Shown here piece by piece: positions 23,012-60,651 of a stretch of DNA of 64,000 nt. The notes under the pieces are model-generated. The model was not told the origin of the DNA, searched no databases, and saw nothing but the letters and a program-made list of their open reading frames with translations. The position numbers and the translations under genes were made by a program. Each line of letters starts with the position of its first letter. Position 1 is the first letter of the stretch. Source of the DNA: Candidatus Velthaea sp. (GTDB taxonomy: Bacteria > Vulcanimicrobiota > Vulcanimicrobiia > Vulcanimicrobiales > Vulcanimicrobiaceae); the NCBI GenBank assembly GCA_050012475.1, contig JBEKHC010000010.1:11416-75415 (forward strand). The letters run 5' to 3'.

Positions 23012-23054
23012 TCCGCGCACGGTCGGCCCATATTCGGCCGCTACGCTGTGCGGC

Positions 23055-23282
23055 ATGATGAATCTGACCGGCAACCTCGAATCGGCCGCGCTCGCCGGAC
23101 GCGACGGCCTAAGCGCCGACGCAGCGGGCACCGCGCGCTCGATGACGGGGCCGTCTGCGCAACGCGATTTCGAGGCCCCGATGGCGCAGGCCGCGCGGCA
23201 TGAGCTATTTACCGAAGCGTTGCTTTCGGCCGCCCACGCGCGGCTCGAAGAACTCAAGACCGCGGCCATGAACGGCCGATGA
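23055..23282 (+). CDS. Very short FlgB-like proximal rod protein
   Basis: 75 aa directly upstream of flgC; C-terminus DFEAPMAQAARHELFTEALL...LKTA resembles the FlgB C-terminal helix. Confidence 0.5.
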   Translation: MMNLTGNLESAALAGRDGLSADAAGTARSMTGPSAQRDFEAPMAQAARHELFTEALLSAAHARLEELKTAAMNGR

Positions 23283-23689
23283 CCGACTTTGCCATCCTCG
23301 GCGCCGCGTCGAGCGGGATGCAAGCGCAACGCGCGGCGATGGATATTGCCGCGCGCAATGTCGCGCTGGCACAAACCGGCGACGCCCGGCATCCGGCGCA
23401 TGGACTCGTGCCCGATTTCGCGACCGTTCTTTCCGCTTCCAGCGCGCCCGAAGGCCCGGAGGACGCCGACGTCACGGCTCTCGAGGCGCAACTTTCCGAC
23501 TCCGGCGACGACGCGAACGCCGGCGCAGTGGTTGCAATCAGCGGAGCCCACGTCGGCTCCGCGCCGCTCGATTCAATTACGGAGATGATCAACGTCTTGG
23601 ATTCACAACGCGCGTACGAAGCCAACGCGTCGATCTTCGACATCGGTAAACGCTTGTCGGAACGCACGATCGACATGGGGCGGCTGTGA
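23279..23689 (+). CDS. flgC: Basal-body rod protein FlgC
   Basis: ASSGMQAQR..MDI.A.NVA N-terminus; EMINVLDSQRAYEAN C-terminus. Confidence 0.85.
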   Translation: MTDFAILGAASSGMQAQRAAMDIAARNVALAQTGDARHPAHGLVPDFATVLSASSAPEGPEDADVTALEAQLSDSGDDANAGAVVAISGAHVGSAPLDSITEMINVLDSQRAYEANASIFDIGKRLSERTIDMGRL

Positions 23690-23994
23690 CCATCACGCCG
23701 CTGGACGCTATCGCAGAAAGCCCCGCTGCGACGGCGCTGGAGCCTGACATCTCGCGCGCATCCGGCAACGATGCGGCGACCTTCGGATTTGGAAGTTTGG
23801 TCTCTGCGCTGCGGGCCGGCACGCAATCGCTGCAGCGTGCGGAGGGTGCCGAAAACGCCTTCATCGGCGGAACCGGCGGACTGCAAGAGCTGGTCTTCGA
23901 GCGCGCCAAGGCCGACATCGTCGTCTCGATCGCGACGGCGGCTTCCTCGCGCGTGACCCAATCGATCAACACCGTCACCCAAATGCAACTATAG
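23686..23994 (+). CDS. fliE: Hook-basal body protein FliE
   Basis: 102 aa, L.ELV....KA, terminal MQL, position after flgC. Confidence 0.8.
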   Translation: MTITPLDAIAESPAATALEPDISRASGNDAATFGFGSLVSALRAGTQSLQRAEGAENAFIGGTGGLQELVFERAKADIVVSIATAASSRVTQSINTVTQMQL

Positions 23995-24064
23995 TGAATT
24001 CGACTTCATCGAATCCCTCGCGTTCGGCCTCACGGCTGAGCCGCATCAGTGCCAGGCTCTGACG

Positions 24065-25579: not shown

Positions 25580-26075
25580 AGCTTTTCGCAGCTTTGCCGC
25601 ACTGCTGCTCGGCCGCGACGAGGCCAACGCCGAGCCGCCGGGCCCGCCCGAATCCGAACCGGCCGTCATTACCGAACCATGCCGCGAAACCGACCCGCGG
25701 GTAGCCGATCTGCTGGCTGGGTTCACCGTCGAACTGAACCGGTTGACGGCGCGCGCCGCCGAACTGTTGGAGGAGCAGGCCGAAGCCGCACTCGCCGATC
25801 TCGCACGACGCGTGTTGGGACGGGAATTCGCTTCCTCGCCGGCCGAGATCGCAGCGCTGCTGGCCGAAACGCTCGCGGAGTTCGGCGTCACGCGGCCGCT
25901 CGCCGTACGCGTTTCGAGCGCCGACGCGCAGCACGTCGTTTCGCCCTGGCGCGTACAGATCGACCCGAGCCTTTCCGCCGGTGATTTCGCGGTCGACGTC
26001 GAGGACGGCAGCTACGATCTCAACGTCCAGACCCGGCTGGATGCGCTGCTCGCGGCGCACCGGATCGCGCTGTGA
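25572..26075 (+). CDS. fliH: FliH/SctL-like ATPase regulator
   Basis: LARRVLGRE, VRVS..D, DPSLSAGDF.V....G.YD; directly upstream of the ATPase. Confidence 0.75.
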   Translation: MAEAFRSFAALLLGRDEANAEPPGPPESEPAVITEPCRETDPRVADLLAGFTVELNRLTARAAELLEEQAEAALADLARRVLGREFASSPAEIAALLAETLAEFGVTRPLAVRVSSADAQHVVSPWRVQIDPSLSAGDFAVDVEDGSYDLNVQTRLDALLAAHRIAL

Positions 26076-27346
26076 GCTTTGCTGCCCGGCGCGGCCGGGT
26101 TCTCGCCGCGCTGGGCGAGAGCGTGATCGCCCAGCTGCCCGGGGCGCGTGTCGGCGAAGCGGTCACGATCCGGGTCGGCGCGGCGCCGCGCGTTCCCGCG
26201 ACCGTAACGCGCGTCGATGCCGCACGCGTTGAACTGCGGCCGCACACGTCGGTCGCCGGCGTCGGCGTGGGCGACGAAGTGGTGACCGACCCGCTGGCCA
26301 CGACTTTGCCGCTCGGGATGCGGCTGCTCGGGCGCGCGATCGATTCGGCCGGCTGCGCTCTCGACGCCAAAGGCAGCGTGCGCGGGCGCCGGAGCGCCGT
26401 CATCGATCCGCCGATCGATGCCGGTCAACGCGGTCCGGTCGAGCGGCCGTTTTGGACCGGCGTCAAAGCCATCGACGGGCTGATGACGATCGGCCGCGGC
26501 GCGCGTGTCGGCATTTTCGGCGGCCCGGCGACCGGAAAATCGCTGCTCGTCGAAGCGCTGGTGCGCGGCGCCGGCGCCGACGCCGTGGTCGTCGGGCTGA
26601 TCGGCGAGCGCGGCGCAGAAGCGGCGGCCTGGATGCAGCGCATCTCGCCGCACGCCACGATCGTGTGTTCGCCCAGCGATCGTTCCCCCAGCGAGCGCGT
26701 GCGCGCGGCGCACGTCGCGCTCGCGCAAGCATCGCAATTGCGCCGGCGCGGACTCAACGTGCTCGTCGTGCTCGACAGCCTGGCGCGCTTCGCGCTGGCC
26801 GCGCGTGAGATTGCGCTGCGCAACGGTGAAGCCGTCGGCCGCGGCGGCTATCCGCCCAGCGTCTTCGCCGAGATGACGCGGCTGCTGGAACGCGGCGGAA
26901 ACGTGGGCGGCGGCAGCATCACGCTCGTGGCGACCGTGCTGTCCGACGGGCCGGACGACCGCGAACCCTTGAGCGACGGGGCTCGCGCAGCCCTCGACGG
27001 ACACATCGTGCTGTCGGCCAAACTCGCGCGTCGCGGGCTCTTTCCCGCCATCGACGTGGCCGCCAGCGCGAGCCGCACGATGGACGCCGCGGTAAGCGCC
27101 GGGCATCGGCGCAGCGCGCGGATCGTGCGGCGAGCAATCGCGGCGCTCGACGCCACCCGTGAACTGCGCGACCTCGGTTTCAGCCATACCGACCGTCATC
27201 TCGAACGCGCCGTCGCGCTGCAAGAACGCATCGAAGCCTTCATCCACGACGGTCGGCGCACATCCGGCTCCGCCGAAATGCTGGCCGAGCTGCGCGCGCT
27301 CGCCGAACAACTGGATCTCGACGGACTCGAAGCGGTGTCTTTTTGA
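26072..27346 (+). CDS. fliI: Type III export ATPase FliI/SctN
   Basis: TGVKAIDGL.TIGRG.R.GIFGG..TGKS, LIGERG, DSL.RFA.A.REI, GYPPSVF, LLER.G, LDGHIVLS, FPAID. Confidence 0.92.
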   Translation: MSFAARRGRVLAALGESVIAQLPGARVGEAVTIRVGAAPRVPATVTRVDAARVELRPHTSVAGVGVGDEVVTDPLATTLPLGMRLLGRAIDSAGCALDAKGSVRGRRSAVIDPPIDAGQRGPVERPFWTGVKAIDGLMTIGRGARVGIFGGPATGKSLLVEALVRGAGADAVVVGLIGERGAEAAAWMQRISPHATIVCSPSDRSPSERVRAAHVALAQASQLRRRGLNVLVVLDSLARFALAAREIALRNGEAVGRGGYPPSVFAEMTRLLERGGNVGGGSITLVATVLSDGPDDREPLSDGARAALDGHIVLSAKLARRGLFPAIDVAASASRTMDAAVSAGHRRSARIVRRAIAALDATRELRDLGFSHTDRHLERAVALQERIEAFIHDGRRTSGSAEMLAELRALAEQLDLDGLEAVSF

Positions 27347-27954
27347 TAGCGCTCGCCGATGTCGCCGCCGTCGAACGCCGCGTCGCTCAACTCGCCGACG
27401 GCGAACGTCCGCCCATCGATCGCACGTCCGGCGGCGCCGCGTTTTCAGCACTGTTGGCTGCTGGGGGCGCCGCGCCCGACGGCACGCCGCCCGCGCCGCC
27501 GCCGCGTTCGATCCCCTTCGCCGAACTCGAGCGAACGATCGCGCAGGCGTCGGCGGCGAACGGGGTCGATCCCGCGCTGGTCAAAGCCGTCATTGCGAAC
27601 GAAAGCGGCTTCGACGCTGGCGCAACGTCGAGCGCCGGCGCGCAAGGACTCATGCAGCTCATGCCCGGCACGGCGGCGAGTGAGGGCGTCGCCGACGCGT
27701 ACGATCCGCGCCAGAATGTCGCCGGCGGAACGCACTATCTCCGTGGTTTGCTCGAACGTTTCCACGGCAATGTCGCGCTCGCGCTCGCGGGCTACAACGC
27801 TGGGCCGGGGGCGGTCGAGCGCGGCGCCATCGGAACCGAAACGCAAAACTACGTGCATTCGGTGCTCGCTTCGTACGCGGCGCTCCGTGCCTCCGCAAAG
27901 CCGGACGCCGACGCCGTTTCGCCGGACGCTGTTGCCGCAACGCCGATTGGATAG
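27343..27954 (+). CDS. Lytic transglycosylase (SLT domain)
   Basis: AVIANESGF, GAQGLMQLMP.TA, ALAGYNAGPG.V, ETQNYV. Confidence 0.93.
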   Translation: MIALADVAAVERRVAQLADGERPPIDRTSGGAAFSALLAAGGAAPDGTPPAPPPRSIPFAELERTIAQASAANGVDPALVKAVIANESGFDAGATSSAGAQGLMQLMPGTAASEGVADAYDPRQNVAGGTHYLRGLLERFHGNVALALAGYNAGPGAVERGAIGTETQNYVHSVLASYAALRASAKPDADAVSPDAVAATPIG

Positions 27955-29117: not shown

Positions 29118-29882
29118 CTAAGCGATCAAGATGGAGCTCTGCGTGCAATCGTCGGGCGGATACTCCGGCGCGTCGCCGTGCTCGCCCCTTTCGTCCGCTG
29201 GACGCCGGCACGGTTGTTCGTGCCGGCGCTTGCGGCGATCGAGGGTGTCCGGAGCCGGCGGTGTGAGCGCGTTGGCCACCAAGATCGGCGGCGGCGTGTT
29301 GTCGGCATCCGGCGTAGCGGGAGGCAGCAAGCGCAGCGCCGCATCGCTGCCGTAGCGCTCGATGGAGGCGGCTAGACGACCGGCGGTCGCCGCAGCGAGT
29401 TCCGTCTTGCTGGGGGACGCGGCGCCGCGCGTCCGCCCACCGGCCGCAAGCTGCGCCAGTGTCAGCTGGGCGATGAACGCTTCCCGCACTTGGGTCGGAA
29501 GCGCCGCGATGACGGTCGCGAACGCCTCGCCATACCGTCGGAGCAACACTCCGACCGCGTTCGGCCCGTACTCCGGCATCGTTTGCAGCAACGCCGCGAC
29601 GTGCGCGTAGGGAACGCCGAACGTCGTCGCCGGATCGCATGCGATGCTATCGGCGGCCGGCATCGGACCGGTAAAAGCCCCCAGCGCTGAATCGACTGGG
29701 GTTTCCGCTGCCGCAGCAACGCGAACCGCCGGCACCGGCGAAACGCCTGGTAAGGCATCGAATTCCCTCATCCGGCCTCCTCCGCTCCCCCGCAGCGCCC
29801 TTTCACGCGCACGGGGTGCTTTTTCAAGGGCCGGCGGCCTCGGACCGACGATTATTTTGCGCGCAGAGAACACATCGGACAC
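29118..29882 (-). CDS. Hypothetical protein divergent from fliQ
   Basis: 254-aa ORF with a helical-looking core (PYAHVAALLQTMPEYG...); start uncertain. Confidence 0.5.
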   Translation of the reverse strand: MSDVFSARKIIVGPRPPALEKAPRARERALRGSGGGRMREFDALPGVSPVPAVRVAAAAETPVDSALGAFTGPMPAADSIACDPATTFGVPYAHVAALLQTMPEYGPNAVGVLLRRYGEAFATVIAALPTQVREAFIAQLTLAQLAAGGRTRGAASPSKTELAAATAGRLAASIERYGSDAALRLLPPATPDADNTPPPILVANALTPPAPDTLDRRKRRHEQPCRRPADERGEHGDAPEYPPDDCTQSSILIA

Positions 29883-29906: not shown

Positions 29907-30179
29907 GTGGATGTTTTTGACGGCCTCCTGCGCGAGGCGCTCGTCGTGTGTGCGGTCATCTGCTTGCCGGTCTTAGGGGCGGCGGCGCTCATCGGGACGA
30001 TCATTGCGATCGTCCAGGCGGCGACGCAGATTCAGGAACAGACGTTGACGCTGCTGCCCAAGCTCATCGTCGTCGCGTTCGTGGTCGCCGTGTTCGGCCG
30101 GTTCGGTTTGGGATTGTGCGCGAATCTCTTCACCGACGCGCTCGGCCGCATCCCGGCGTTGATTTCGTCGCTGGGGTGA
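29907..30179 (+). CDS. fliQ: Export gate protein FliQ/SctS
   Basis: QAATQIQEQTL..LPKL. Confidence 0.93.
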   Translation: MDVFDGLLREALVVCAVICLPVLGAAALIGTIIAIVQAATQIQEQTLTLLPKLIVVAFVVAVFGRFGLGLCANLFTDALGRIPALISSLG

Positions 30180-30895
30180 CGCAGCTGTATGCGCTCGTCT
30201 TCGCCCGCTGCGCCGGCTTCGTTTTCCGCGCGCCGGGCTTTTCGCACCCGGCGGTGCCGCCGATGGTGCGTGCGGGTTTGGCGCTGGTGCTTGCCGTCGG
30301 ATTGAGCCCCGCGTTGCGCGGTCCCGGCGTTCTTCCCACTGGTTCGTTCGTCTTCGCATTGGCACTTGAGGTCGCGCTCGGCGCGATGGTCGGCATGGCG
30401 GCATCGATTCTTTACGACGGCATCTCAGCGGGAGCACGCGCGCTCGATGACTACGTCGGCATCCAGGATAGTCTGCGCAACGCGACGACCTCGGCCGGCG
30501 GCGAGGCGTTCAGCCGGCTGTGGACGATCACGTTCATCGCAGCCTTCTTCGTCCTGGGCGGATACCGTTTGCTGATTGTCGCCTTTGCGCGCGGGTTCGA
30601 GCTGCTGCCGCCGGGCTCGCTGCTGCGTCCGGGGCATCTGCTCGACTTCGCTCTCTCGCTGCCGACGCTGTCGCTGCGTGCCGCGCTCATCGTCGCGGGG
30701 CCCGGCATTTTGCTCGCGCTGCTCGCCCAGCTCGCGCTGGGCAGCGTCGCGCGCGTCATCCCGCGCTTTGCGAATTTCACCTTGACGTTTCCGATCGTCT
30801 TCGGCGTCGTGCTCCTCGCGACACTGGCCACGCTGCCGTTTGCTGCGGACCTCGCCGGCCGTCCGTGGCTGCACCTGCCGATGCTGAACCCTTAA
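30176..30895 (+). CDS. fliR: Export gate protein FliR/SctT
   Basis: GTG start overlapping fliQ stop; FAR..G....AP.FS...VP..VR, LE..LG, LG..AR..P; multiple TMs. Confidence 0.88.
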   Translation: MTQLYALVFARCAGFVFRAPGFSHPAVPPMVRAGLALVLAVGLSPALRGPGVLPTGSFVFALALEVALGAMVGMAASILYDGISAGARALDDYVGIQDSLRNATTSAGGEAFSRLWTITFIAAFFVLGGYRLLIVAFARGFELLPPGSLLRPGHLLDFALSLPTLSLRAALIVAGPGILLALLAQLALGSVARVIPRFANFTLTFPIVFGVVLLATLATLPFAADLAGRPWLHLPMLNP

Positions 30896-30898
30896 TTC

Positions 30899-31903
30899 AT
30901 GGCCGACGACAAACCGTTCGAGCCGACGCCCAACTGGATCGCGCGGGCTAAGCGCGAAGGCAACGTCGCACGCTCGCAGGAGCTGGGCGCGATCTGCGGG
31001 TTTTTGCTTGGCGCCGTCGCGCTCGCGGCGCTCGTGCCGGCGCTGGGCGGCGTCGCTGCCCGTTGGATGGTGCAGACGGCGGCGGACGGCGGTCTGCACA
31101 CCGATGGACTGCTGCCGTTCGCCGGACTGGCGCTGCTGCCGCTCGTCGCCGTTGCAATCGGCGGCACGACGACGGCCCTGCTGCAAGAACGGCTGTTCTT
31201 CGTGGCACCGCGCTTCAAAGCCGACCGGCTCAATCCCAAAGAAGGCCTCAAGCGCATGTTCTCGCGCGAAGCGGCCGTCGCGGCGGCACGCGCGGTGCTC
31301 GCCTTCGGACTGGCGACGAGCGCCATCGTGCCGACCGCGAACGAAGTCTTCGCCCGCGGCGTCGGCGCGGCCGATCTTCCGTTCATCGCGGCTTTGGTGC
31401 GCTCGGCCGGCGCGCGCATCGTGCTCAGCGTGCTCGTCGTCGGCGCGCTCTTTGCCATCTTCGACGTCCTCATCGTGCGCCGGCGCTGGCGCCGCAAACT
31501 GCGCATGAACGCACACGAGCTCAAACGCGACACCAAAGAAAGTGAAGGCGATCCGCTGCTGCGCCGGCACCGCCGGGGCATGCACCGCTCGCTGAGCTCC
31601 GGAGCCATGGCCGGCGTTCAGCGCGCGGCCTTCGTGCTCACCAATCCGACGCACATCGCGATCGCTCTGGAATACCGGCCGCCCGAGGTCCCCGTGCCGC
31701 GCATCCTCGTTCGCGCCAGCGACCAAAACGCGCTCCGCGTGCGCGACTTGGCGGCCGGTTATGCAATACCGGTGATCGAGAACGTGGCGCTCGCGCGCGA
31801 ACTCTACGCGCTGGGCCGGCCCGGCGACGAGATTCCGGTCCAAACGTACGTCGCAGTGGCCGAGGTCATAAACGCACTCTTGCAAACGGGGACCCTGACG
31901 TGA
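30899..31903 (+). CDS. flhB: Export switch protein FlhB/SctU
   Basis: K..EPT....AKREGNVARS.EL, LRM...ELK...KESEGDP, intact NPTH autocleavage motif, EN..LAR.LY. Confidence 0.93.
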   Translation: MADDKPFEPTPNWIARAKREGNVARSQELGAICGFLLGAVALAALVPALGGVAARWMVQTAADGGLHTDGLLPFAGLALLPLVAVAIGGTTTALLQERLFFVAPRFKADRLNPKEGLKRMFSREAAVAAARAVLAFGLATSAIVPTANEVFARGVGAADLPFIAALVRSAGARIVLSVLVVGALFAIFDVLIVRRRWRRKLRMNAHELKRDTKESEGDPLLRRHRRGMHRSLSSGAMAGVQRAAFVLTNPTHIAIALEYRPPEVPVPRILVRASDQNALRVRDLAAGYAIPVIENVALARELYALGRPGDEIPVQTYVAVAEVINALLQTGTLT

Positions 31904-33945
31904 AACCAAGTGCGATGACCGCCGCGTTCGGCGCGCTCGTTTTGTCGGTCGTGTTGATTCTCGTCGTTCCGCTGCCGCCGTTCGTGCTCGACGCGCTCCT
32001 TGCGATCAACATCTTGGGAACCGCGCTCGTGCTGCTCATCAGCATCACCGTCAGCGATCCGTTGGAATTCTCGGCCTTCGCACCGGCCTTGCTCGTCGCC
32101 ACGCTCTTTCGCCTTGCGCTCGACGTTTCGGCGACGCGCTTGATCCTGACCCAAGGATCGCTGCCCGGCGGCGTGGGGTCGATCATTCCGGCCTTTGGCG
32201 ATTTCGTCGTGCGCGGCAATCTCGTCGTCGGCCTCATCATGTTCGTCATCCTCATCACGATCCAGTTCATCGTGATCGCGGCCGGTTCGCAGCGGGTCGC
32301 CGAGGTGGCCGCGCGTTTCACCTTGGACGCGATGCCCGGCAAGCAGATGGGCATCGATGCCGAACTGCACGCGGGGTCGCTCACGCCCGAAGCGGCCCGC
32401 AAGCGCCGCGCCTTGGTGCAGAAAGAAGGCGACTTCTTCGGCGCCATGGACGGCGCGGGCAAGTTCGTCAAAGGCGACGCGATCGCGGCTCTGGTGATCG
32501 TGGTGCTCAATTTGGTCGGCGGCGTTGCCGTCGGCATGATCTACGACGGCTTGTCGCCGCTCGACGCGCTCAATACGTTTGCGCTGCTTTCGATCGGCAA
32601 TGCGCTCGTCACGACGTTGCCCGCGTTCCTGATGTCGATCTCGATGGGCATGATGGTCACCCGCGTGGCGGCGGACGGTTCGCTGGGAACCGACCTGATC
32701 ACGCAACTCTTCGCGCGCCCGGAAGTCCTGCGCTCGGCCGGCTTCTTGTCGTTCGGACTGGCACTGGTACCCGTCTTGCCGCATCCGTTGTTTATCGCCC
32801 TGGGTCTGGCCGCGATTGCGTGCGCGCAGCTCTCGGCACGGCGGATCAAGCGCGACGCCGACCACGGCGCCGCGCGAGCCGAATCGCTTCGGAAAGCCGA
32901 GCGGCGACGGCCCGAATCGGCCTTCGGATCGGTCGGCGTCGACATCATCGCCGTCGAGTTGGGCAAGGATCTCGCACCGTTTTTTCTGCCCGAAAACACC
33001 GAAGCCATCATCGAACGCGTTTTCGAGGCGCGGCGCATGATCGCGCGTGAACTGGGCATCGTGATGGCCGGGGTGAACGTCCGCGACGAAGGTACCCGTG
33101 AGCCCGCATCCTACGAGATCCGCTTTCGCGGTGAAGTCGTCGGTTGCGGATCGCTGCGCCCGGAGCGCTTTCTGGCCATCGCCGACACAACCGTCCTCGG
33201 GGCGCTTAGCGGCGAAGAAGTGCGCGATCCCGTGTACGGCTTCCCGGTGAAGTGGATCGCGCCCGCCGATCGCGACTTTGCGATGGCCGCCGGCGCGCTG
33301 GTCTTCGATCCGATCACCGTGCTCATCTCGCACCTGGGCGAGTGCGTGCGCAATCGCGCGGGTCTTCTGTTCGGGCGTCAAGAGATGCAAACGCTGCTCG
33401 AATACCTCAAGCCCGCATATCCCGTGATCGTCAAGGAAGTCGGAACCGACGCCCTGCCGTTCGCGACCGTCCACAAAGCCTTTCTCTATTTGCTGCGCGA
33501 ACGCGTTTGGCCGCGCGACCCGGTGGCCACCATCGAGGCCATGATCGAGGCCTCCGCAACAACGCGCGACGCGCGCGATCTCGCCGATGCGGCGCGCAAA
33601 GTCTTGGTCCCGCCGCTGCTCCATGCGCGCAAACTGCGCGAGCTGCCGGCGCTGATGTTCGACCCGGAATTCGAGGCGCGCGTGGCCGCAGCATGGACGG
33701 GCGACGCCGGCGTGCCCGAACCGCAGCTCGCACTGTACATCCGCGAGCGCGTGAGCGCGTATGCCAAGACCCTTCCCGGCGGCCAAACGTTTGTCGTCTG
33801 CACGTCGCCGCTGCGCCGTCACCTCAGCGACTTGCTCGAGAAGTTCGGCTTGCGCGCCGAAGTCTTCGGTTTTGGCGAGCTGCCGCCGGACGTCAACCTT
33901 CGACCCACCGCTATCGTATCCGACCCGCGTGGGGCGCTCGCATAA
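31900..33945 (+). CDS. flhA: Export gate protein FlhA/SctV
   Basis: FS.F...LL..TLFRLAL.VS.TRLIL, RVAEVAARFTLDAMPGKQM.IDAEL, FFGAMDGA.KFVKGDAIA. Confidence 0.96.
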   Translation: MKPSAMTAAFGALVLSVVLILVVPLPPFVLDALLAINILGTALVLLISITVSDPLEFSAFAPALLVATLFRLALDVSATRLILTQGSLPGGVGSIIPAFGDFVVRGNLVVGLIMFVILITIQFIVIAAGSQRVAEVAARFTLDAMPGKQMGIDAELHAGSLTPEAARKRRALVQKEGDFFGAMDGAGKFVKGDAIAALVIVVLNLVGGVAVGMIYDGLSPLDALNTFALLSIGNALVTTLPAFLMSISMGMMVTRVAADGSLGTDLITQLFARPEVLRSAGFLSFGLALVPVLPHPLFIALGLAAIACAQLSARRIKRDADHGAARAESLRKAERRRPESAFGSVGVDIIAVELGKDLAPFFLPENTEAIIERVFEARRMIARELGIVMAGVNVRDEGTREPASYEIRFRGEVVGCGSLRPERFLAIADTTVLGALSGEEVRDPVYGFPVKWIAPADRDFAMAAGALVFDPITVLISHLGECVRNRAGLLFGRQEMQTLLEYLKPAYPVIVKEVGTDALPFATVHKAFLYLLRERVWPRDPVATIEAMIEASATTRDARDLADAARKVLVPPLLHARKLRELPALMFDPEFEARVAAAWTGDAGVPEPQLALYIRERVSAYAKTLPGGQTFVVCTSPLRRHLSDLLEKFGLRAEVFGFGELPPDVNLRPTAIVSDPRGALA

Positions 33946-34114
33946 AACCCGCGGGCGACGCGCGAAATCCGGCATGTGGCGCAAACACTGGTATCATCTT
34001 TGCCCGTTACCATCCGTGCGGGGCCGCGCGCGACTGGAATCGCCGCCTGCGGGACGCGATCGAGCCCGGGACCGCACTGAAAATCTCTTTGCAGCGGACG
34101 TAAAGGAGCAATCC

Positions 34115-34384
34115 ATGGCATTTCTCGGTGCACTCTTTGCCGGTATCGGCGGCAGCTTGTTCTCCGGCGGCCCGCTGTCCGGGATGCTCAACGGCGCGGA
34201 GGCGGCCTCCGAGGCAAGTTACGAGGAAAACCAGGCCGAACTGCTGGCCTCGAACACGCGGCTCAATACCATGGCCGTAAAAATGTCGGAAACCACGAAT
34301 ACCGAGGAGCTCTCCGTCGCCGCCGACGAGGCGCACAACCACGTTGTACGTTCCTACATCGAAGCGGTCAAACAAGTACAATAG
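34115..34384 (+). CDS. Small orphan protein (89 aa), candidate type III-secreted pilin-like subunit
   Basis: Strong RBS AAAGGAGCAATCC-ATG; Gly/Ser-rich N-terminus, helical E/N/A-rich C-terminus; follows flhA. Confidence 0.7.
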   Translation: MAFLGALFAGIGGSLFSGGPLSGMLNGAEAASEASYEENQAELLASNTRLNTMAVKMSETTNTEELSVAADEAHNHVVRSYIEAVKQVQ

Positions 34385-34565
34385 GGTCTGCGGTTCCGCG
34401 GGGTTCCTCGGGCCAAACGACGGCGATCGATTCCCTTCAATGGCATGCAAGCGATGCCGCCTTTTTTCGTGCAGCTTCAGGAACCCGCGTGGGTCTACAT
34501 AGACTTCTAACATGAATTCACCGAAGGCGATAAGCAGAGCCGGGAGTCGATGTCGTCTCGTTCTT

Positions 34566-35123
34566 TTAGGCGGTACCGCCTCGTATGCGATAGCGCACGT
34601 GGATTACTCCAGTCCTGAAACGGCGCGTCTCAAGGAGTTCGAGATTCCGTCGTATGGCGGCTCGGAATGCCGGCTTTCCCCCGCCGACGATCACCGGGTT
34701 GAGAAACAGGTGACATTCATCGACGAGGTCGGCTTCGATCGCAAGTCCCGCAAGCTCGGCGCCGCCAATGATCATGTCGTGCTCCGATTCCCGCTTGAGC
34801 TTCCGAATAGCCTCGAAGTCGAACTCCCGCTCGACACGCGCGTTGTGTTTCGCAGCGCCGAGCGTTCGTGAAAAGACGATCTTTTCGGGCTTCTGCCAAA
34901 CCCGTGCGAAGTCGCGGTGTTCGGGCGGATAATCCTCCACCGGCGCATCCCAGAAGGCCATCGTCTCATAGAGTCGCCGCCCCAAAAGAAGGGCTCCAAT
35001 CGGCCGCAACAGCTCGGTGATGAAGGCGAATACCTGATCGGGATTGACCCAATCGAAAGCACCGCTGGCGTCCTCGACGTAACCGTCGAGCGACGCGCTC
35101 GTGATGTAGATCAGCTTCGACAT
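34566..35123 (-). CDS. Dihydrofolate reductase/RibD C-terminal family protein
   Basis: MSKLIY..SASLDGY, LLGRRLYE.M, K.VFSRTL, GGA.LA, LVDE...F.NPV.VGGGKP. Confidence 0.9.
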   Translation of the reverse strand: MSKLIYITSASLDGYVEDASGAFDWVNPDQVFAFITELLRPIGALLLGRRLYETMAFWDAPVEDYPPEHRDFARVWQKPEKIVFSRTLGAAKHNARVEREFDFEAIRKLKRESEHDMIIGGAELAGLAIEADLVDECHLFLNPVIVGGGKPAFRAAIRRNLELLETRRFRTGVIHVRYRIRGGTA

Positions 35124-35353
35124 ACGAGAGAGGTCGAACGTTTCGTGCAGGCCGCAGATGAATTCCTCTGCGTCGTTGCGCAGCCCCTCGCCAAGAGCAC
35201 GCACTTGCTGGGACATGCCAATTCGTTGTGCGAGGCGCGGCCCAACGAGCTCCCGACGACAGGCGCGGAAGAACCCCGCGCAATGGCCGCCCATTCTCCA
35301 GTAACTCAGCGACACCGATTGTCCGAGGGCGCCAAGCACGCCGAAGGCTCGCC

Positions 35354-35896
35354 CTACAACCCCGTGGGTTCAGTTATGAGCCCACCTCGCCGTCTGCGCG
35401 CTCGAAGCTGAGTCTGCGTGGCTCGATTCGGCAAGACCCGGCGCAGATTCGGTGTGTCGAGTTGCAAACCGCGGTTCTCACGGACGATGCGCCACGTTCC
35501 CTCATAGGTGGTGGTAACGAATCGTCCGCCAGCTCCATGGTCGTTGGAAGTCAACCGCACCGATACGAGGCTCGGCGAGTCTGCGTGTGCCGAGATGAGA
35601 GAGATAAACCTTGTCTGCGCGGTCATCGGGAGCCAGCCCACGTAGGGATGTCCGTGACGGTATGCACGAGAGAACAAATGGTACATGTCGGCGTAGCGCT
35701 CTTGGCTCCACAATCGAAAAAAGTAATCGACCAGCACTACGGCCTCTTGCTCACGCGAGCCCTGCACGGACGCGTTCGCGCTGCGACCGCAAAGGTGATT
35801 CCCGTCGTAGGCTAGGCTGCACGCGATGGGCATGGGCACTCCGAGCGTCAGACGTCGCAAGCCAAACCATGAAAGCACGCTTCGACGACCGCCCAC
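35354..35896 (-). CDS. Hypothetical protein, possibly NTF2-like fold
   Basis: V..FF..W....Y..MY.L.S and YEGTWRIVRE pattern; start uncertain. Confidence 0.45.
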   Translation of the reverse strand: MGGRRSVLSWFGLRRLTLGVPMPIACSLAYDGNHLCGRSANASVQGSREQEAVVLVDYFFRLWSQERYADMYHLFSRAYRHGHPYVGWLPMTAQTRFISLISAHADSPSLVSVRLTSNDHGAGGRFVTTTYEGTWRIVRENRGLQLDTPNLRRVLPNRATQTQLRARRRRGGLITEPTGL

Positions 35897-36087
35897 GGGC
35901 GAGCCTAGCAGAGTCGGACGTTATGATAGAAACGAATCTCTTCGGACGCCCGAACAGGTTCGCTTTCCTCGCTGCAACCCTTGACTTTCGAACCTTGAAA
36001 CGCGATAGGGCACGTGGAGGCGATCGCCTCACTACGCGGCTCGTTCCTTTCCGTTCCGTCCGACCGAAGTCAACAAGGAGCAATCTC

Positions 36088-36360
36088 ATGTCATCCATTG
36101 CACCCTCTCTCAGCAGCACAGCCGGATCCGCCGTTTCGAGCACGGCGAACAGCAGCAGCGGCGACAGCAGTTCGCAGGCGTTGCTGCAAGAAGAACAGGC
36201 GCAGTTCGAGGCAAACTTCGCGCTGCAAACGCACCAGGCCATGATCGACAACCAAAATGCGACCAACACCGCGATTGCCCAGTCGCACGCACAGACCGCA
36301 TCCGCGTCGACCGCAGGCGCACGGGAAGTCGGCGACTCGAACGCCCATATCGTTGCATAG
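36088..36360 (+). CDS. Small orphan protein (90 aa), candidate type III-secreted pilin-like subunit
   Basis: RBS AAGGAGCAATCTC-ATG; Ser-rich N-terminus, Q/A/N-rich helical remainder. Confidence 0.7.
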   Translation: MSSIAPSLSSTAGSAVSSTANSSSGDSSSQALLQEEQAQFEANFALQTHQAMIDNQNATNTAIAQSHAQTASASTAGAREVGDSNAHIVA

Positions 36361-36604: not shown

Positions 36605-36922
36605 TCAACCGAAACGATACGCGCCGCTGTCGTCGATTTGAACCGTGCCGTGCTCGATTTCCAAGCGGTGGACGCGATGATCCCAGTAGCCGAGCAGCCG
36701 GATCGCATACGGCTTCATTCGTGCGAGCAGCGCTTTGGTCGCGCTCGAGACGACGAAGCGGTCGCGCACCCATTTCGGATGATCTCGCGGCAAGACGATC
36801 TCGCCGATCGCACCGGCATCGGTCAAGCCGCCCATGACCGTCGGCGATTCGGCCGCCTGCTGCGCGGGCGGTGCAGCGCTGGTTCCCTCGCGCCGTCGCA
36901 CGATTCCAGCTCGTTTACTCAT
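36605..36922 (-). CDS. Hypothetical protein coupled to fliA
   Basis: ATGA overlap with the fliA stop; 105 aa. Confidence 0.55.
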   Translation of the reverse strand: MSKRAGIVRRREGTSAAPPAQQAAESPTVMGGLTDAGAIGEIVLPRDHPKWVRDRFVVSSATKALLARMKPYAIRLLGYWDHRVHRLEIEHGTVQIDDSGAYRFG

Positions 36923-37587
36923 GCGCTGATCATCTCTTCGCGAACGATTTCGAGCGCGCGATCGCGCAACTGCGCGATGCGCTGCTTGGTCACGGACAAC
37001 TCGCGCGCTACGGCTTTGAGTCGATAGCCGGAAAAAAAGTAGAGTTCGACGACCTGCCGATGGCGCACGGGCAATTTCTGGAGCGCCGCCCGTAAAATCG
37101 CGCGTGCCTCGTGTTCGCAGTACAGCCGAGCCGGATCCGTTTCCCAGTTCGCAGCGACCAGCGCGTCGACCGGGATCGCATCATCGAGTGAAACGCACGA
37201 ACGGTGATGGGCGGCAATCCGAGCAGAGCGCAGCTTGGGATGCCGGCGCTCCATCTCGAGCATCGACGGCAGGTGACCAGCCGTCAGCGCGATGGCGTAG
37301 CGGTCCCGTTCCGCCTGACGTAAGATACGCCGGGTGAATTCGGTCAGCCGGTCCATGCGCCGCAACCCGTTGAGCATTGCGCCGAGAATGCGGGCGCGCG
37401 CGTAGCGATCGAGCGACGCTCCGCGAGCCGGATCGTAGGAATCGACCGCGCGGACGAGCCCCAGGCAGCCTTCGCCGACCAGATCGTCGAGGTCCACGCG
37501 CCCGGCTCGGCGTGCTACCGTGCGCGCGATGGTGCGGACTACCGGATACAATCGCACGATCGTCGCATCCCGCTCGGCCGCGGTCAT
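36919..37587 (-). CDS. fliA: Sigma-28 (FliA/WhiG family) RNA polymerase sigma factor
   Basis: DDLV.EG..GL..A...YDP.RG, YAR.RI.GAML..LRR.D, region 4 L..VA..L.VT..RI.Q. Confidence 0.85.
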   Translation of the reverse strand: MTAAERDATIVRLYPVVRTIARTVARRAGRVDLDDLVGEGCLGLVRAVDSYDPARGASLDRYARARILGAMLNGLRRMDRLTEFTRRILRQAERDRYAIALTAGHLPSMLEMERRHPKLRSARIAAHHRSCVSLDDAIPVDALVAANWETDPARLYCEHEARAILRAALQKLPVRHRQVVELYFFSGYRLKAVARELSVTKQRIAQLRDRALEIVREEMISA

Positions 37588-37860: not shown

Positions 37861-38589
37861 CTAGCTGCGCTGGATGTTGTTGGCAACACGCATCATCTCG
37901 TCGGCGGCAGTAACGCCTTTGGCGTTGGCTTCGTAGGCGCGCTGCGCAGAGAGAATTTCCATCATCGCTTCGATCACCGAGACGTTCGAGCGTTCGAGCA
38001 TCCCGAACGCGACCTTCGGACCGCCGTCGCGACCGGCATCCACATAGCGCACGGGTCCCGAATCGTTGGTCGCCGCGAACACGGTCGAACCGGCGACGCG
38101 CAGACGTTCGGGCGCGGCAAACGTGGCTAGGCGGATGCGGCCGGCAAACTGACGCTTCCCGGCCAGCGTGTCGACGTAGGTCATGCCGTCCGGTTCGGCC
38201 GTTATCGCCAGTGCATCATCGGGAACCTTGATGCCGACGAGCGAGAAACCGTCCGCGTTGCGCAACACGCCGTCGGGCGTGCGGTGAAATTCACCGTCGC
38301 GGCTGTAGACGAACGTCCCATCGGGGCGCTTGAGGGTAAAGAAACCGACGCCGTCGATTGCCGCGTCGAACGGACCACCCGATTTCATGAGCTTGCCCTG
38401 CTCGAAAAGCAGCTGTTTGCCGGTGAATGCGGTGCCCAGACCCGAGGTGCCGTCGGTGAGTGCAGCAAACCTGGCGGCACTGCCTTTGAATCCGGGCACT
38501 TCGGCATTGGCAAGATTGTCCGAAATCGTCTCGAGATTGTTTTGCTGCGCTGCCATCCCCGTTGCAGCCGCGAACATCGCCCGGTTCAT
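37861..38589 (-). CDS. flgG: Distal rod protein FlgG
   Basis: AATGM.AQQ..L..I..NLAN...GFK, D.AI.G.GFF, YSRDG.F, LERSNVS...M...QRAYEAN.K....ADEM. Confidence 0.88.
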   Translation of the reverse strand: MNRAMFAAATGMAAQQNNLETISDNLANAEVPGFKGSAARFAALTDGTSGLGTAFTGKQLLFEQGKLMKSGGPFDAAIDGVGFFTLKRPDGTFVYSRDGEFHRTPDGVLRNADGFSLVGIKVPDDALAITAEPDGMTYVDTLAGKRQFAGRIRLATFAAPERLRVAGSTVFAATNDSGPVRYVDAGRDGGPKVAFGMLERSNVSVIEAMMEILSAQRAYEANAKGVTAADEMMRVANNIQRS

Positions 38590-39200
38590 TGAATCTTTCC
38601 CATCCCGTTAGCGGCTTTCGAGCGCGTTTCGTCGATCGCGACGAGCGTTTTTTGCGCGGTCTCGAACGCGCGCTGCGCATCGATGACGCCGATCATCTCG
38701 CCGATCGAGTTGACGTTCGAGCTCTCGAGGAAGCCGCTCCGCACGGTGGTGCCGCGCGGCAGCGCCAACTGCGCGACGGCCCGGCCCGACGCACGCCACG
38801 TTCCGTCGGCTTCGATCGCCGGCGCGCCGGGCGGCAAACGAACGAAACCGTTCTTGCCCAGCAGCGTGCGGCCGTGCGCGTCGACGAGATAGCCGTCGCA
38901 GTCAGAGGTGAACGCTCCCGCCCGCGTCGCAACGCGCAACTGCGGATTGCGGTCGGGCGCGACGAAAAACGAACCGCCGCCGATGAGGGCGAGATCCAGC
39001 GTGCGTCCGGTGAAGCGCGCGGGGCCTTTCTCGGGCGATGCGACCGCAACGGTCGTGAGGCCGCGTCGTGACGCAACGGTCCGGGCCAGGTGTTTGTGAA
39101 AGCCGTCGGTCGACGCGTTGGCGAGATTGTCGGTGGCGATTTCGAGCTTCGCCTTGGCGGAGAGCATTGCGCTCGCCATCCATTGAATGCCGGTCAACAT
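38586..39200 (-). CDS. flgF: Rod protein FlgF (shortened)
   Basis: NLANAST.GF, TGR.LDLAL.G..FF, TRAG.F, GFLESSNVN...EM...I..QRAFE. Confidence 0.82.
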   Translation of the reverse strand: MLTGIQWMASAMLSAKAKLEIATDNLANASTDGFHKHLARTVASRRGLTTVAVASPEKGPARFTGRTLDLALIGGGSFFVAPDRNPQLRVATRAGAFTSDCDGYLVDAHGRTLLGKNGFVRLPPGAPAIEADGTWRASGRAVAQLALPRGTTVRSGFLESSNVNSIGEMIGVIDAQRAFETAQKTLVAIDETRSKAANGMGKIQ

Positions 39201-39259
39201 AGTCTCTACCTTACTTTTGAAAGATGCGTACAGTATTTTCTGAGCGCCGCGGATTTCGG

Positions 39260-39913
39260 TCAGCGAAAGCTGCTCGCGATGCCGCCGCAGACCAGCGTCC
39301 AGCCGTCGACCATAACGAACAGCAGGAGCTTACACGGCAGCGAGATCACGGGTGGACTGAGCATGAACATGCCGAGGCCCATGAGGATCGACGCCACCGC
39401 CAGATCGATGGCCACGAAGGGCAAATACAGCGCGAAACCGATCGCGAACGCGCTGCGCAATTCGCCGACCACGAACGCCGGCATGACGACCGAGACTGGC
39501 TGCAGCGACGCTTGTGCTTCGGGCTCGTGCGCCACGCGCTCGAAGAGATCCAGATCTTTTTTGCGCGTCTGCCGGAGCATGAACGCGCGCAGCGGTTCGA
39601 TGCCGCGCTCGATGAGCTGCGCTTGCGAGATGCGGCCTTGACTGTAGGGCACGATGGAATCGTGCGAAATGCGCTGCAGCGTCGGCGTCATGACGACGAC
39701 GGTCAGCACCAACGAAACGCCGATCAAAACGATGTTGGGCGGCAGCGCTTGGGCGCCGATCGCGGAGCGCACGAGCCCGAGCACGACCACGATGCGCACG
39801 AACGCCGTCGTCATCACGAGCAGCAGCGGCGCGATGGCCAGGATCGTCAGACTGCCCAGCACGTCGAGCGGCAGGGCCGCGTGACTGCCGGGAAGGGCGA
39901 AGCCGGGTATCAT
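39260..39913 (-). CDS. fliP: Export gate protein FliP/SctR
   Basis: TAFVRIVVVL...R.A.G....PPN, P.R.FM..QT, PAF...EL..AF.IGF..YLPF..IDL.VAS.LM..GM.ML.P..ISLP.KLLLFV..DGW. Confidence 0.95.
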   Translation of the reverse strand: MIPGFALPGSHAALPLDVLGSLTILAIAPLLLVMTTAFVRIVVVLGLVRSAIGAQALPPNIVLIGVSLVLTVVVMTPTLQRISHDSIVPYSQGRISQAQLIERGIEPLRAFMLRQTRKKDLDLFERVAHEPEAQASLQPVSVVMPAFVVGELRSAFAIGFALYLPFVAIDLAVASILMGLGMFMLSPPVISLPCKLLLFVMVDGWTLVCGGIASSFR

Positions 39914-39919
39914 GCCGGA

Positions 39920-40177
39920 TCAGCGCTGCGCGACGAGTTCGGTGATCCGAACGCCGTAATTGTCGCCCACCGCCACGATGTCGCCGCGGGCAACGATTTT
40001 GTCGTTGACGAGCAAATCGATCGGTCCGCCGGCGCAGCGATTGAGGTCCAGGATCGATCCGGTGCCCAGTTGCAAGACCTCTTCGATCGTCAGCTTGCAC
40101 GTGCCGAGTTCAGCGGTCACGTGCAGCGGCACGTGCATGAGCAGCTCGAAGTTGCCGTACTCGTCGGGCGGGCTCAT
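39920..40177 (-). CDS. fliN: C-ring protein FliN
   Basis: VPL.V..ELG, L..GS...L....G.PID..VN...ARG..V.V...YGVRITE; ATG 40177 overlaps the upstream stop. Confidence 0.9.
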   Translation of the reverse strand: MSPPDEYGNFELLMHVPLHVTAELGTCKLTIEEVLQLGTGSILDLNRCAGGPIDLLVNDKIVARGDIVAVGDNYGVRITELVAQR

Positions 40178-40986
40178 GTCGTCGCCTCCCGGCGGCCCGC
40201 AGCCGCGATGACAACCGCGTTGCTTTGGGCGCGGATGCCGCAGTCGCCGCTGGCGACGACGCAATCGCCGATCTTGACCATCGTCGGCGCACCGATCTTC
40301 GTATCGAGCCGCACCGTCTGTCCCACCCGCCAGGCCGCGATTTCGCGCGCGTTGACGACCGCCTCGGCGAACTGCGCGCGAACGTCGAGCGCGATGCCGG
40401 ACAACATCGAACGCTCCAGCTTGCCGCCGAAGCGCGGACCCGGATCTTGCGAGAGCCCGATGCCGATCACGGCATCGAACGGCAGGCCGATCCGCAACTC
40501 GAAATACGTGACGCAGCGTGCGTCTTCACGCTCGGGTTCGATCCGTGCGAGGCCGTTCGCGTCGCCGCAGAACGGTGCGCAGAGCGCCGCGACCTCGGCG
40601 GCGATGCGTTCGAGCGCACGTTCTTCGAGCGCAGAAAGCGGCACGTTTTCGCCGCCGCACTCTTCGCCGAACACGCCCTGCGCGATGCGCCGCGCGTCGC
40701 GCCGGCGGAACACGACGTAGAGGTCGCAGATACTGCCACGCGCCCGGTACAGGCTTCCGCGCTCGAAAAGGACGCGCTGCGTGCCGTCTTTGACGAGCAC
40801 GGGCGCAAAGACGTCGAGCGTCAACTCGCGGGCCAGCAGGTTCGAGAGCCGGGCTCGCGCGTGATTGGCCGCTGCACACACGGCGGAAATCGGCAAGTCC
40901 GTGACCGGCTCGAAATAGGTCTCACGAACGAGTTTCGCGCCCGACGCGCCGCTGGGTTGGGCCCGAAAGCGCAGCATCGTGATCAC
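40174..40986 (-). CDS. Divergent FliM/SctQ-like C-ring protein with C-terminal SpoA domain
   Basis: C-terminal I..W.VG..V.LD.....P...KIG......G..G; LS.LE...L middle motif; upstream of fliN. Confidence 0.65.
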   Translation of the reverse strand: MITMLRFRAQPSGASGAKLVRETYFEPVTDLPISAVCAAANHARARLSNLLARELTLDVFAPVLVKDGTQRVLFERGSLYRARGSICDLYVVFRRRDARRIAQGVFGEECGGENVPLSALEERALERIAAEVAALCAPFCGDANGLARIEPEREDARCVTYFELRIGLPFDAVIGIGLSQDPGPRFGGKLERSMLSGIALDVRAQFAEAVVNAREIAAWRVGQTVRLDTKIGAPTMVKIGDCVVASGDCGIRAQSNAVVIAAAGRREATT

Positions 40987-41711
40987 TTGATGAGATCCAC
41001 GGCGATCTTGGCCGCGCGGGCATCGGCCTGTGTGCCCGCGCTCATAGCATCGAGCGCGAGGAACGCCTCGCGAAGCTGAACGAGCCCGGCCTCGAAGTCG
41101 ACCGACCCGAGGTCGCGCGATTGCGTCGCGAGCGCCCCGAACGATCCTTCCGTCGCCCGCCCGACGGTCGCGACGATACCGGGCGCGGGCACCGCCTGCG
41201 TCGCGCCTACGCGCTGCAGTTCGGTTCCGGCCGGGAAGCGCGCTAAAGCCACCCGCCCGACGGCGACGCGTTCTTTGGACGGTTTGTTGGTCTTGGGATC
41301 GATCACGGTGCGCGTGTAGGCGACGGTGCCGTCGGCCTCGACGTGCGCTTCGCTCACCCGTCCCAGCGCGGCATCGACGGGATCGACATGCAGCGGCTGC
41401 GGCGACGCGCCCCGCGCCGCGGCGGGAAAGCCCAGCACCGCCGAACCGTCGGCGAAGCGAACGGTCCCGTCGACGACGGCGAAACTTCCGTCGCGCGAAT
41501 AAAACGGCTTCGCGGCTTTATCCAGGCCCATGAAGTAGGCGTGTTCGGGAGCCGCAACGCTCATCGGATCGAGCGCCGGTTTCGGGGGCGCCGGCGTCGC
41601 GCTGCGCACATCGTGATACGTGGCTTCGTACCCAGGCACATACGCGTTGAGCATCTCTTGGGTGCGCGCCGCGAGTTCGCTGAGCGCTTGCGCCGGACCG
41701 GGATTGATCAT
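40983..41711 (-). CDS. Short, degenerate FlgE/FlgG-family axial protein (242 aa)
   Basis: FYSRDGSF, GSAVLGFP, VGRVALARFP....L, LGSVD near C-terminus; ANNIAN motif eroded. Confidence 0.65.
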   Translation of the reverse strand: MINPGPAQALSELAARTQEMLNAYVPGYEATYHDVRSATPAPPKPALDPMSVAAPEHAYFMGLDKAAKPFYSRDGSFAVVDGTVRFADGSAVLGFPAAARGASPQPLHVDPVDAALGRVSEAHVEADGTVAYTRTVIDPKTNKPSKERVAVGRVALARFPAGTELQRVGATQAVPAPGIVATVGRATEGSFGALATQSRDLGSVDFEAGLVQLREAFLALDAMSAGTQADARAAKIAVDLIK

Positions 41712-43563: not shown

Positions 43564-44013
43564 ATGAGCGATATTCCTACCGTGCTGCGCATCGTCTCGG
43601 CATTCGCCGTCGTTGTGCTGCTGTTGTACGCCTTTGCCGTCGTCGCGCGCCAGCGCCGGGGAACGAAACTGCACGCGCGCAGCGATCGGCTCATCACGGT
43701 GATCGAGACGACGCCCCTGACGCAGAACGCGTCGCTGCACGTCGTGAAAGTGGGCGAGCGCTACCAGGTGATCGCGCTGACGTCGGCTACCGTTTCGCAG
43801 CTAGGTGAAATCGAGCCGGCAACGGTCGGACGCATCGCCGGCTCGCGCGATGCACCGTCGTTCTTTGCCGGAGCCGGCCGGCGGCCGAGCGCCCCTGCCG
43901 GGCAGCCGCCGCGAAGATCGCGGACCGGAGACGCTCAACCGGGCTGCGACGGCAATGCTCCAGACGGCGCGCACGGTACGGATCCATTTGATCGATCGGC
44001 CGCGCCTCAGTGA
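43564..44013 (+). CDS. fliO: FliO-like export gate chaperone
   Basis: N-terminal TM, then I.VIETT.L.....LHVVKVG.RY.VI......V..L.EI; C-terminal tail runs into the pseudogene. Confidence 0.75.
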   Translation: MSDIPTVLRIVSAFAVVVLLLYAFAVVARQRRGTKLHARSDRLITVIETTPLTQNASLHVVKVGERYQVIALTSATVSQLGEIEPATVGRIAGSRDAPSFFAGAGRRPSAPAGQPPRRSRTGDAQPGCDGNAPDGAHGTDPFDRSAAPQ

Positions 44014-57941: not shown

Positions 57942-57945
57942 GCGC

Positions 57946-58188: not shown

Positions 58189-58190
58189 CT

Positions 58191-60647: not shown

Positions 60648-60651
60648 GATG

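Follow-up and report, generated by a model that had tools for sequence, protein, structure and literature searches.

Two small genes in a flagellum-derived type III secretion system (T3SS) cluster, P0001 and P0002, are genuine, conserved, slowly evolving and linked to that cluster. They lie in a 64,000-nucleotide stretch of DNA from Candidatus Velthaea sp. (GenBank assembly GCA_050012475.1, contig JBEKHC010000010.1, positions 11,416 to 75,415 of the forward strand), all of which was analysed and which we call the window. P0001 (34115-34384, + strand) encodes 89 aa, with an uncharged Gly-rich N-terminus (residues 1-27) and then a predicted long helix, and P0002 (36088-36360, + strand) encodes 90 aa, with a Ser-rich, putatively disordered N-terminus (1-26) and then a predicted long helix (27-89). 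We tentatively favour the reading that both are dedicated late exported products of this non-rotary system. The evidence does not reach the stronger label of "filament subunit".

The GC content of the window is 64.9%, and it contains many long spurious open reading frames (ORFs). Both small genes are nested in frame within longer ORFs, P0001 within one of 207 aa (33761-34384) and P0002 within one of 249 aa (35611-36360). An earlier reading of the same DNA (the original prediction) had picked out the two short genes as hidden in spurious calls, and the evidence agrees with it: in addition to the in-frame nesting, a Shine-Dalgarno (SD) sequence, AAGGAG, lies 6-7 nt 5' of each short start (34115 and 36088), and the homologues of both proteins start at the same Met as the short calls.

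The original prediction had also described a common upstream sequence, and this claim survives in part. The 11-mer AAGGAGCAATC, i.e., AAGGAG followed by CAATC, is present exactly twice in the window (34103-34113 and 36075-36085, + strand), each time 5' of one of the small genes. However, this is not above chance: 11 of 100 shuffles yield at least two matches to the 11-mer at no more than one mismatch. Orthologous loci retain the AAGGAG/GAGGAG portion (ACAAGGAGCTTACC, ACGAGGAGTTCACC, GCAAGGAGTAGCAGAC) but not CAATC, and comparable AAAGGAGCAAC contexts occur 5' of related small genes in another genus. Because shuffles match at chance and orthologues keep only the SD part, we judge AAGGAGCAATC to be a strong ribosome-binding site plus five unconserved bases—an ordinary SD, with no special leader. 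A terminator-like hairpin with a T run lies 3' of P0001 (34441-34469, + strand).

Linkage to the T3SS cluster can be seen in other DNA. Nine metagenome loci encode a relative of P0001; three of them begin inside or at that relative, and the remaining six hold upstream DNA, with T3SS genes there in 6/6. Linkage in other DNA, without which the original prediction would have counted itself refuted, is seen in all six of these loci. In two loci (L022 and L023), the relative is 3' of flhA, whose 3' end is present, as in the window. In four others (L024, L025, L027 and L029), a gene that we call X is directly 5' of the P0001 orthologue, with its 3' end overlapping it, and three of these (L024, L025 and L029) have fliQ-fliR-flhB-flhA running divergently from X. 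L025 further has FlgG, orf101, sigma and orf105, with the P0002 orthologue next in line. Gene order thus differs from that of the window while linkage to the T3SS cluster persists.

The two proteins also change slowly. Between the window and L024, L025 and L029, P0001 is 66-74% identical and P0002 62%, as compared to 78% for FlhA, 75-78% for FliQ and FliR, 63-64% for FlhB, 57% for the sigma factor and about 32% for X. On these identities, P0001 and P0002 can be taken to evolve at the pace of core parts. X, which in the window encodes 217 aa rich in Ala and Pro (29118-29771, - strand, divergent from fliQ), is of low complexity and 29-34% identical between loci, and its window copy lacks a conserved C-terminal stretch.

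Each protein belongs to a narrow family. P0001 has 23 database homologues (54-98% identity, 84-103 aa), with 31 invariant columns that are nearly all in the C-terminal 60 residues, and almost all positions of its C-terminal 30 residues are invariant in the family alignment. P0002 has five homologues and 36 invariant columns. No Pfam or NCBIfam family matches either protein, and as single queries neither has a match in the genomes of 40 relatives. Against 1.84 billion representatives, the P0001-family profile found its own family and a single extra match, P0032, a repeat protein with Cys-rich units that we judged spurious. A scan of genome contigs with the P0001 profile confirmed 0 of 101 pattern matches, and a scan of the window's own genome for genes with an MxFL N-terminus found P0001 only; a paralogue on contig C35, which has a different start, was found by tblastn. 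Among 301 genomes, the A1 profile matched its own genome and, weakly, one other (G015), where the match falls within a 251-aa ORF unrelated in build and was rejected.

The original prediction regarded P0001 and P0002 as diverged paralogs, and for this only the N-termini speak. We judge from sequence comparison that an N-terminal module of ~25 residues is common to the two families; it is significant between other members (P0006 vs P0027, first 30 residues: z=5.1, with 0/500 shuffles reaching the score) but falls short of significance for P0001 vs P0002 themselves (BLASTP E=5), where the N-terminus of P0002 has drifted to a Ser-rich form. The helices are not related above chance: compared with shuffles, the helix parts of P0001 and P0002 score z=0.1-0.7, every pair tried of C-terminal parts from the two families scores z near 0, and when the family profiles are aligned with hhalign, no more than 17 columns, all N-terminal, are matched (probability 18.8%). 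The shared 27-residue EE..TNT strings to which the original prediction drew attention do exist (residues 37-63 of P0001, 35-61 of P0002), but because the helix regions are not alike above chance, they are no evidence of kinship.

Each protein is predicted to consist of an uncharged, flexible, Gly/Ser-rich N-terminus of ~25 residues and one uninterrupted amphipathic helix of ~63-68 residues. The Gly/Ser-rich N-termini noted by the original prediction are present in both proteins and carry no charge. In 30/30 aligned members there is no charged residue before position 19 (the first 19-40 residues being uncharged), the first basic residue is at position 44 or later, and there is no Cys and no Trp; an additional member, P0031, has one Cys. 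With no charge ahead of position 19, the positively charged n-region of a Sec signal is missing. Both proteins have a putatively unstructured N-terminal region that lacks Sec and Tat signals, as expected of T3SS substrates, although this feature has low specificity.

Structure prediction with AlphaFold2 (AF2) gave a model of P0001 with a short helix at residues 3-14, at low predicted local distance difference test score (pLDDT), and a single helix at 21-88 (pLDDT 67, predicted template modelling score [pTM] 0.31). In the model of P0002, residues 1-26 are disordered (low pLDDT, no secondary structure) and residues 27-89 form a helix (pLDDT 76.6, rising above 90 at ~40-70). The helix regions of both proteins are without Pro or Gly. 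Both models agree with the original expectation of a flexible N-terminal part ahead of a helical body, except that P0001 residues 3-14 are modelled as a short helix. Neither model contains the helical hairpin on which the original prediction had made its filament idea depend, and the Foldseek comparison that it proposed returned 0 PDB matches for either protein. Searches of PDB sequences, profile searches included, gave no relevant match. With E up to 10, the HrpA_pilin (PF09589), HrpE-like (PF28047), needle and flagellin families match 0/24 members of the P0001 family and 0/6 of the P0002 family, and Pfam finds no Flagellin_N, Flg_bb_rod, Flg_bbr_C or FliE domain in either family. A prediction of a four-copy P0001 complex scored 0.01 against a mark of 0.42 and carries no weight either way.

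By language-model features, the ESM Atlas puts P0001 near small proteins without a name from Vulcanimicrobiota, and P0002 near such proteins from Pseudomonadota. The named neighbours are an HrpA_pilin cluster for P0001 (0.88, 169 shared features) and a cluster with 23% HrpA_pilin members for P0002 (0.91, 177 shared features), with HrpE-like clusters for both, all at scores that fall in the tool's own "leads" range and are possibly driven by size and composition. Three further identities were tried and rejected. The C-terminus of P0001 had been likened to FliE, but hhalign with the cluster's FliE gives a probability of <1%. A FliO analogue was discarded because FliO is already encoded elsewhere in the cluster (43564-44013), and a precursor for the lanthipeptide synthetase (LanM) 8 kb away was discarded because there is no Cys in 30/30 aligned members.

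A promoter-like motif recurs in the cluster and its relatives. Its consensus is CTTGA(A/C)WWW-N13-14-(C/T)GA(T/A/G)(A/G)GGG, and it is present before P0002 in 2/2 loci (window and L025) and before X in 4/4 (window, L024, L025 and L029). The window copies are CTTGACTTT-N14-CGATAGGG before P0002 (35980-36010, + strand) and CTTGAAAAA-N14-TGAAAGGG before X (29799-29828, - strand). The copy before P0001, TGGAAT-N16-CGATCG (34035-34062, + strand), is weak, with each half departing from the consensus, so transcription of P0001 may instead run on from flhA. A strict regular expression of the motif has three genome matches vs 0 in shuffles, and a looser form has five vs 3.0. The -10 part contains CGAT, without the final T of the housekeeping -10, and the geometry and spacing (TTGA-N15-..CGAT) resemble the sigma-28 consensus. 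We infer that the cluster's FliA-like sigma reads this motif.

Some further observations touch on the motif and the N-terminal module. On contig C1 of the window genome, a 447-aa Pro/Ala/Gly-rich ORF by dnaK (L036:3040-4383, - strand), with a Gly/Ala/Val-rich hydrophobic C-terminal third and no Pfam match, begins 45 nt 3' of a motif almost identical to the one before P0002 and could be a further product of the same regulon. In G002, a genome of the same genus, a 295-aa Gly/Gln/Ser-rich protein (contig C18, L038:639-1526, + strand) is encoded just 3' of the flhA of a sister cluster, with the motif and AAGGAG; it has no Pfam match, and its composition is one we take to be reminiscent of harpins. 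By eye, the N-termini of P0002 (MSSIAPSL), an SLT protein of genus g48 (MSSIAATSL) and the C1 ORF (MSSAITSR) look alike.

The cluster around P0001 and P0002 is that of a flagellar export machine. On the + strand it comprises FliJ, FlgC-like, FliE, FliF, FliH, FliI and an SLT lytic transglycosylase (22562-27954; Pfam and NCBIfam), the export-gate operon of fliQ, fliR, flhB and flhA (29907-33945; Pfam), which ends 170 nt before P0001, and FliO (43564-44013; PF04347, E=1.8e-9). On the - strand are orf105 (36605-36922), which has no family match and overlaps the stop of the sigma gene, the FliA/WhiG-like sigma itself (36919-37587; Pfam, with NCBIfam TIGR02479 at 117.8 bits, short of the 189.6 cut-off), and FlgG, FlgF, FliP, FliN, FliM-like and a 242-aa FlgE/F/G-like axial protein (37861-41711; Pfam and NCBIfam). 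The cluster also holds a 101-aa ORF beside the sigma gene and an OmpR-type regulator. Between the two small genes lie a 180-aa ORF that matches no family and a gene with a RibD_C domain (34566-35896, - strand), which are outside the system; the RibD_C gene is also in the near-identical L023, and neither of the two was found in L024, L025 or L029.

By Pfam, this cluster is without FliG_C, MotA, FlgI, secretin, FliD, flagellin and FlgK/L. The genome's Flagellin_N, FliD_C, FlgI, FliG_C and MotA_ExbB matches are all on other contigs (besides the window, the contigs tied to T3SS or flagellar genes are C15, C57, C163, C93 and C42), where a canonical flagellum is encoded, with flagellins (the genome has three), FlgI and FliD on C93 and FliG_C and MotA on C42. 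Because the motor and filament genes are only on other contigs, we regard the window system as related to the flagellum but non-rotary and filament-less, and as existing alongside a canonical flagellum. The original prediction had the small proteins replacing flagellin; flagellin is indeed absent from the cluster, but with three flagellins on other contigs it is not replaced in the organism, merely missing from this system. The genome has three FHIPEP (FlhA) genes, one of the canonical flagellum and two of the flagellin-less type.

Two other features of the machine deserve mention. The FliF homologue (24065-25579) resembles FliG_M over residues 440-489 (PF14841, E=1.1e-7), with no FliG_C in the cluster, and may be a FliF-FliG remnant fusion. 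The overlap of a FliA-like sigma gene with the start of a conserved ORF of ~100 aa (orf105) recurs in three systems, i.e., in the window (36605-37587, - strand), in L025 (454-1427) and on contig C57 (L035:11321-12276), making orf105 a candidate anti-sigma or co-factor of the sigma.

FlhA relatives at 53-63% identity are present in most of 24 same-family genomes, and 23 of the 24 have any FlhA match, in a tally that takes in the unpublished G011, G022 and G024. Flagellin_N has no match in three complete single-contig genomes with this FlhA type. Vulcanimicrobium alpinus, the one species of the phylum in culture, is reported to be without flagella or a flagellin gene, and Table S8 of its description lists only fliN (PMC9758169). 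The flagellin-less FlhA type may mark a phylum-level filament-less flagellar export system.

P0001 has more distant kin as well. G002 has a paralogous compact cluster containing P0035, a 101-aa protein with a P0001-type N-terminus and C-terminal motif (z=6-8.5 against P0001; hhalign E=4.7e-4, probability 33%). A merged profile has matches in 9/301 genomes of the phylum, several of them weak, a count that takes in the unpublished G285. In genus g48, a unit beside yceD-rpmF-fabH (L048:861-2076, - strand, and L047) consists of an SLT-domain protein, a 105-aa small protein of MSFL/NFG type and a small helical partner. The window genome has a unit of its own beside yceD-rpmF-fabH on contig C35 (L049:5177-6328, - strand), where an Ala/Ser/Pro-rich protein stands in place of the SLT protein and is likewise followed by a small protein of MSFL/NFG type and a small helical partner. 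P0001, P0035 and the g48 and C35 proteins group together by pairwise z-score, and P0002 joins them via its N-terminus only. The T3SS genes of these relatives, as read by eye, are scattered, so the yceD-rpmF-fabH unit could still belong to that system. The two small proteins of this unit share a C-terminal ..DDE(I/L).KK(F/W)I motif.

How P0001 and P0002 might serve as dedicated late exported products can be outlined as follows. The cluster's FliA-like sigma would read a shared type of promoter, before P0002 and before the X-P0001 unit. The shared N-terminal module would be recognised, and the proteins would be exported through the FlhA/FlhB/FliPQR gate after the rod is built. Outside the cytoplasm, the strongly conserved helix would engage a partner, conceivably the rod tip, the wall, a membrane or the helix itself. 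Sigma dependence, export and any later assembly are all steps that we infer from sequence. This reading draws on the two conserved families, their linkage to the cluster, their core-like conservation, the N-terminal module and the promoter-like motif, and also on the presence of P0035 within the paralogous compact cluster of G002, the strong SD of both genes and the terminator-like hairpin of P0001, with the HrpA_pilin and HrpE-like neighbours as leads.

Several points weigh against export. The motif was defined post hoc, with the pattern fixed beforehand only for the L029, L025 and G002 sites; the window's P0001 has a weak copy and P0035 has none. There is no secretin or P ring in the cluster, and the genome's four secretin genes are on other contigs. 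The AF2 confidence for P0001 is merely moderate (pLDDT and pTM as above), and its N-terminus is borderline hydrophobic and could therefore be a membrane helix. Distant relatives of P0001, i.e., the 105-aa proteins of g48 and the C35 homologue, are outside T3SS clusters, and the C35 paralogue has a weak match to the glycine-zipper family DUF1269 (E=0.0013) and a lesser one to Gly-zipper_YMGG (E=0.9). Such relatives weaken the case for T3SS-specificity of the superfamily.

A membrane role is the main rival, given an N-terminus of Gly-zipper type with borderline hydrophobicity and the association with SLT. The proteins would then be small membrane-inserted accessory or wall-remodelling proteins, with a glycine-zipper helix in the membrane and the long helix on one side, not exported by the T3SS but acting with the lytic transglycosylase or basal body—a reading that we find doubtful but take seriously. 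The best 19-residue Kyte-Doolittle mean is 1.25-1.84 in 24 P0001-family members, whose N-termini have GxxxG-like spacing, and the 105-aa gene of g48 is 3' of an SLT-domain gene in one operon; the window cluster also has an SLT gene. Known glycine-zipper proteins (DUF1269, YMGG-like) are likewise small with a Gly-rich, borderline-hydrophobic N-terminus, and the weak C35 matches are to these families, but P0001 and P0002 have no such match themselves and a long polar helix follows the zipper. Moreover, the P0002 family is far less hydrophobic (0.34-1.43), with the window P0002 having a polar N-terminus (0.53) and no hydrophobic stretch; no positive charges flank the hydrophobic stretch (first basic residue at position 44 or later in 30/30); and FliO, a known small membrane accessory, is already in the cluster. 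The original prediction's own reading, that P0001, P0002 or both polymerise as needle- or Hrp-pilus-like filament subunits in place of the flagellar filament, we consider unlikely. Their size, disordered N-terminus, helical body and lack of Cys and Trp would suit it, and near-invariance of the last 30 residues of P0001 is as expected if all helix faces make contacts. The cluster encodes a rod together with a short FlgE/F/G-like protein and a sigma of late type, but no FlgK/L, FliD or flagellin, and HrpA_pilin and HrpE-like neighbours were found for both proteins as leads. Hrp pilins (HrpA, HrpE-like, HrpY and NopA) are similarly small, with a flexible N-terminus and a mostly helical body, lie in a T3SS cluster, have no detectable family beyond close kin and are the nearest named language-model neighbours of both proteins. 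However, P0001 and P0002 have no hidden Markov model match to them and are known from genes alone, their machine is of flagellar type (FlgC/F/G, FliE, FliO) without a secretin, and they change as slowly as FlhA, while Hrp pilins are hypervariable. The needle protein SctF and inner-rod protein SctI are also substrates of 80-100 aa with a very conserved C-terminal helix, and they too are two like-built proteins with low mutual similarity. SctF, however, is a helix-turn-helix hairpin, whereas here one unbroken helix without a turn is predicted for each protein, with no Pfam, PDB-sequence or Foldseek match. No secretin or L/P ring is encoded in the cluster to take a filament across an outer membrane, P0001 has relatives beyond T3SS clusters, and the Atlas scores are in the "leads" range. 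Apart from resemblance, nothing speaks positively for the filament reading.

A cytoplasmic role for one or both proteins, e.g., P0002 as a FlgM-like anti-sigma or either as a FlgN/FliT-like chaperone, strikes us as the least probable of the named alternatives. FlgM is a protein of ~90 aa with a disordered N-terminus, an exported anti-sigma-28 that is the product of a late-class gene and leaves through the flagellar T3SS. P0002 resembles it in size and disordered N-terminus, is preceded by a late-type promoter motif and adjoins the FliA-like sigma in the window and L025. On the other hand, neither protein has a FlgM domain (PF04316) by Pfam or a chaperone family match, and FlgM is not among the language-model neighbours of P0002. 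A FlgM-like P0002 is less likely because the conserved partner of the sigma in the window, L025 and C57 is orf105, which is the better positional candidate, and the C57 system has no P0002-like gene. Functions beyond those considered here retain a share about as small as that of the filament. A more specific version of assembly has a slim chance, a little below those two: independently acquired single-helix subunits with a shared export module would assemble into a new periplasmic or surface fibre or tip, in an Eremiobacterota T3SS without motor, hook-junction, cap or flagellin. If true, the flagellum would have given rise to a needle-like secretion device a second time, independently of the injectisome and by a separate route.

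The window system can be compared with flagellum-derived export machines that have no filament, namely Buchnera basal bodies and the "needleless" T3SS* of Myxococcus (PMC12075869), and with the origin of the injectisome (PMC3459982). As in these, the export gate, ATPase complex and ring have been kept, and motor and filament genes are missing. It differs in belonging to a free-living soil and peat phylum, in having rod genes and a FliA-like sigma, in having no secretin and in standing alongside a canonical flagellum. The titles and abstract openings of the literature on Eremiobacterota flagellar or type III systems and Vulcanimicrobium flagella contain no description of this system. Of flagellar export machines that became secretion devices, the injectisome is, to our knowledge, the only one that has been studied well.

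The value of these two genes is that they give such a machine a candidate product. A soil and peat phylum (all 20 of the listed sequencing runs are of soil or peat DNA) has export clusters of flagellar type in which motor and filament genes are missing, and P0001 and P0002 would be the leading candidates for the exported or assembled products of these clusters. The N-terminal module or the promoter-like motif could serve to find the remaining set of substrates, and the purpose of such a system thereby becomes directly testable.

The remainder of the window, 3' of the T3SS cluster, holds genes of other kinds. A LanM-type class II lanthipeptide synthetase (DUF4135 and LANC_like, 1024 aa) and an adjoining BTAD-AAA-TPR regulator of 1058 aa occupy 44218-51267. 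The window contains no tRNA gene. Type IV secretion genes of conjugative type lie at 52045-63774 (VirD4/TraG coupling protein, TrbI/VirB10, CagX/VirB9, VirB8, an S26 peptidase and LPD7), and because of them the T3SS cluster can be said to adjoin a possible integrative conjugative element. An extracytoplasmic function (ECF)-type sigma is encoded at 51293-51946.

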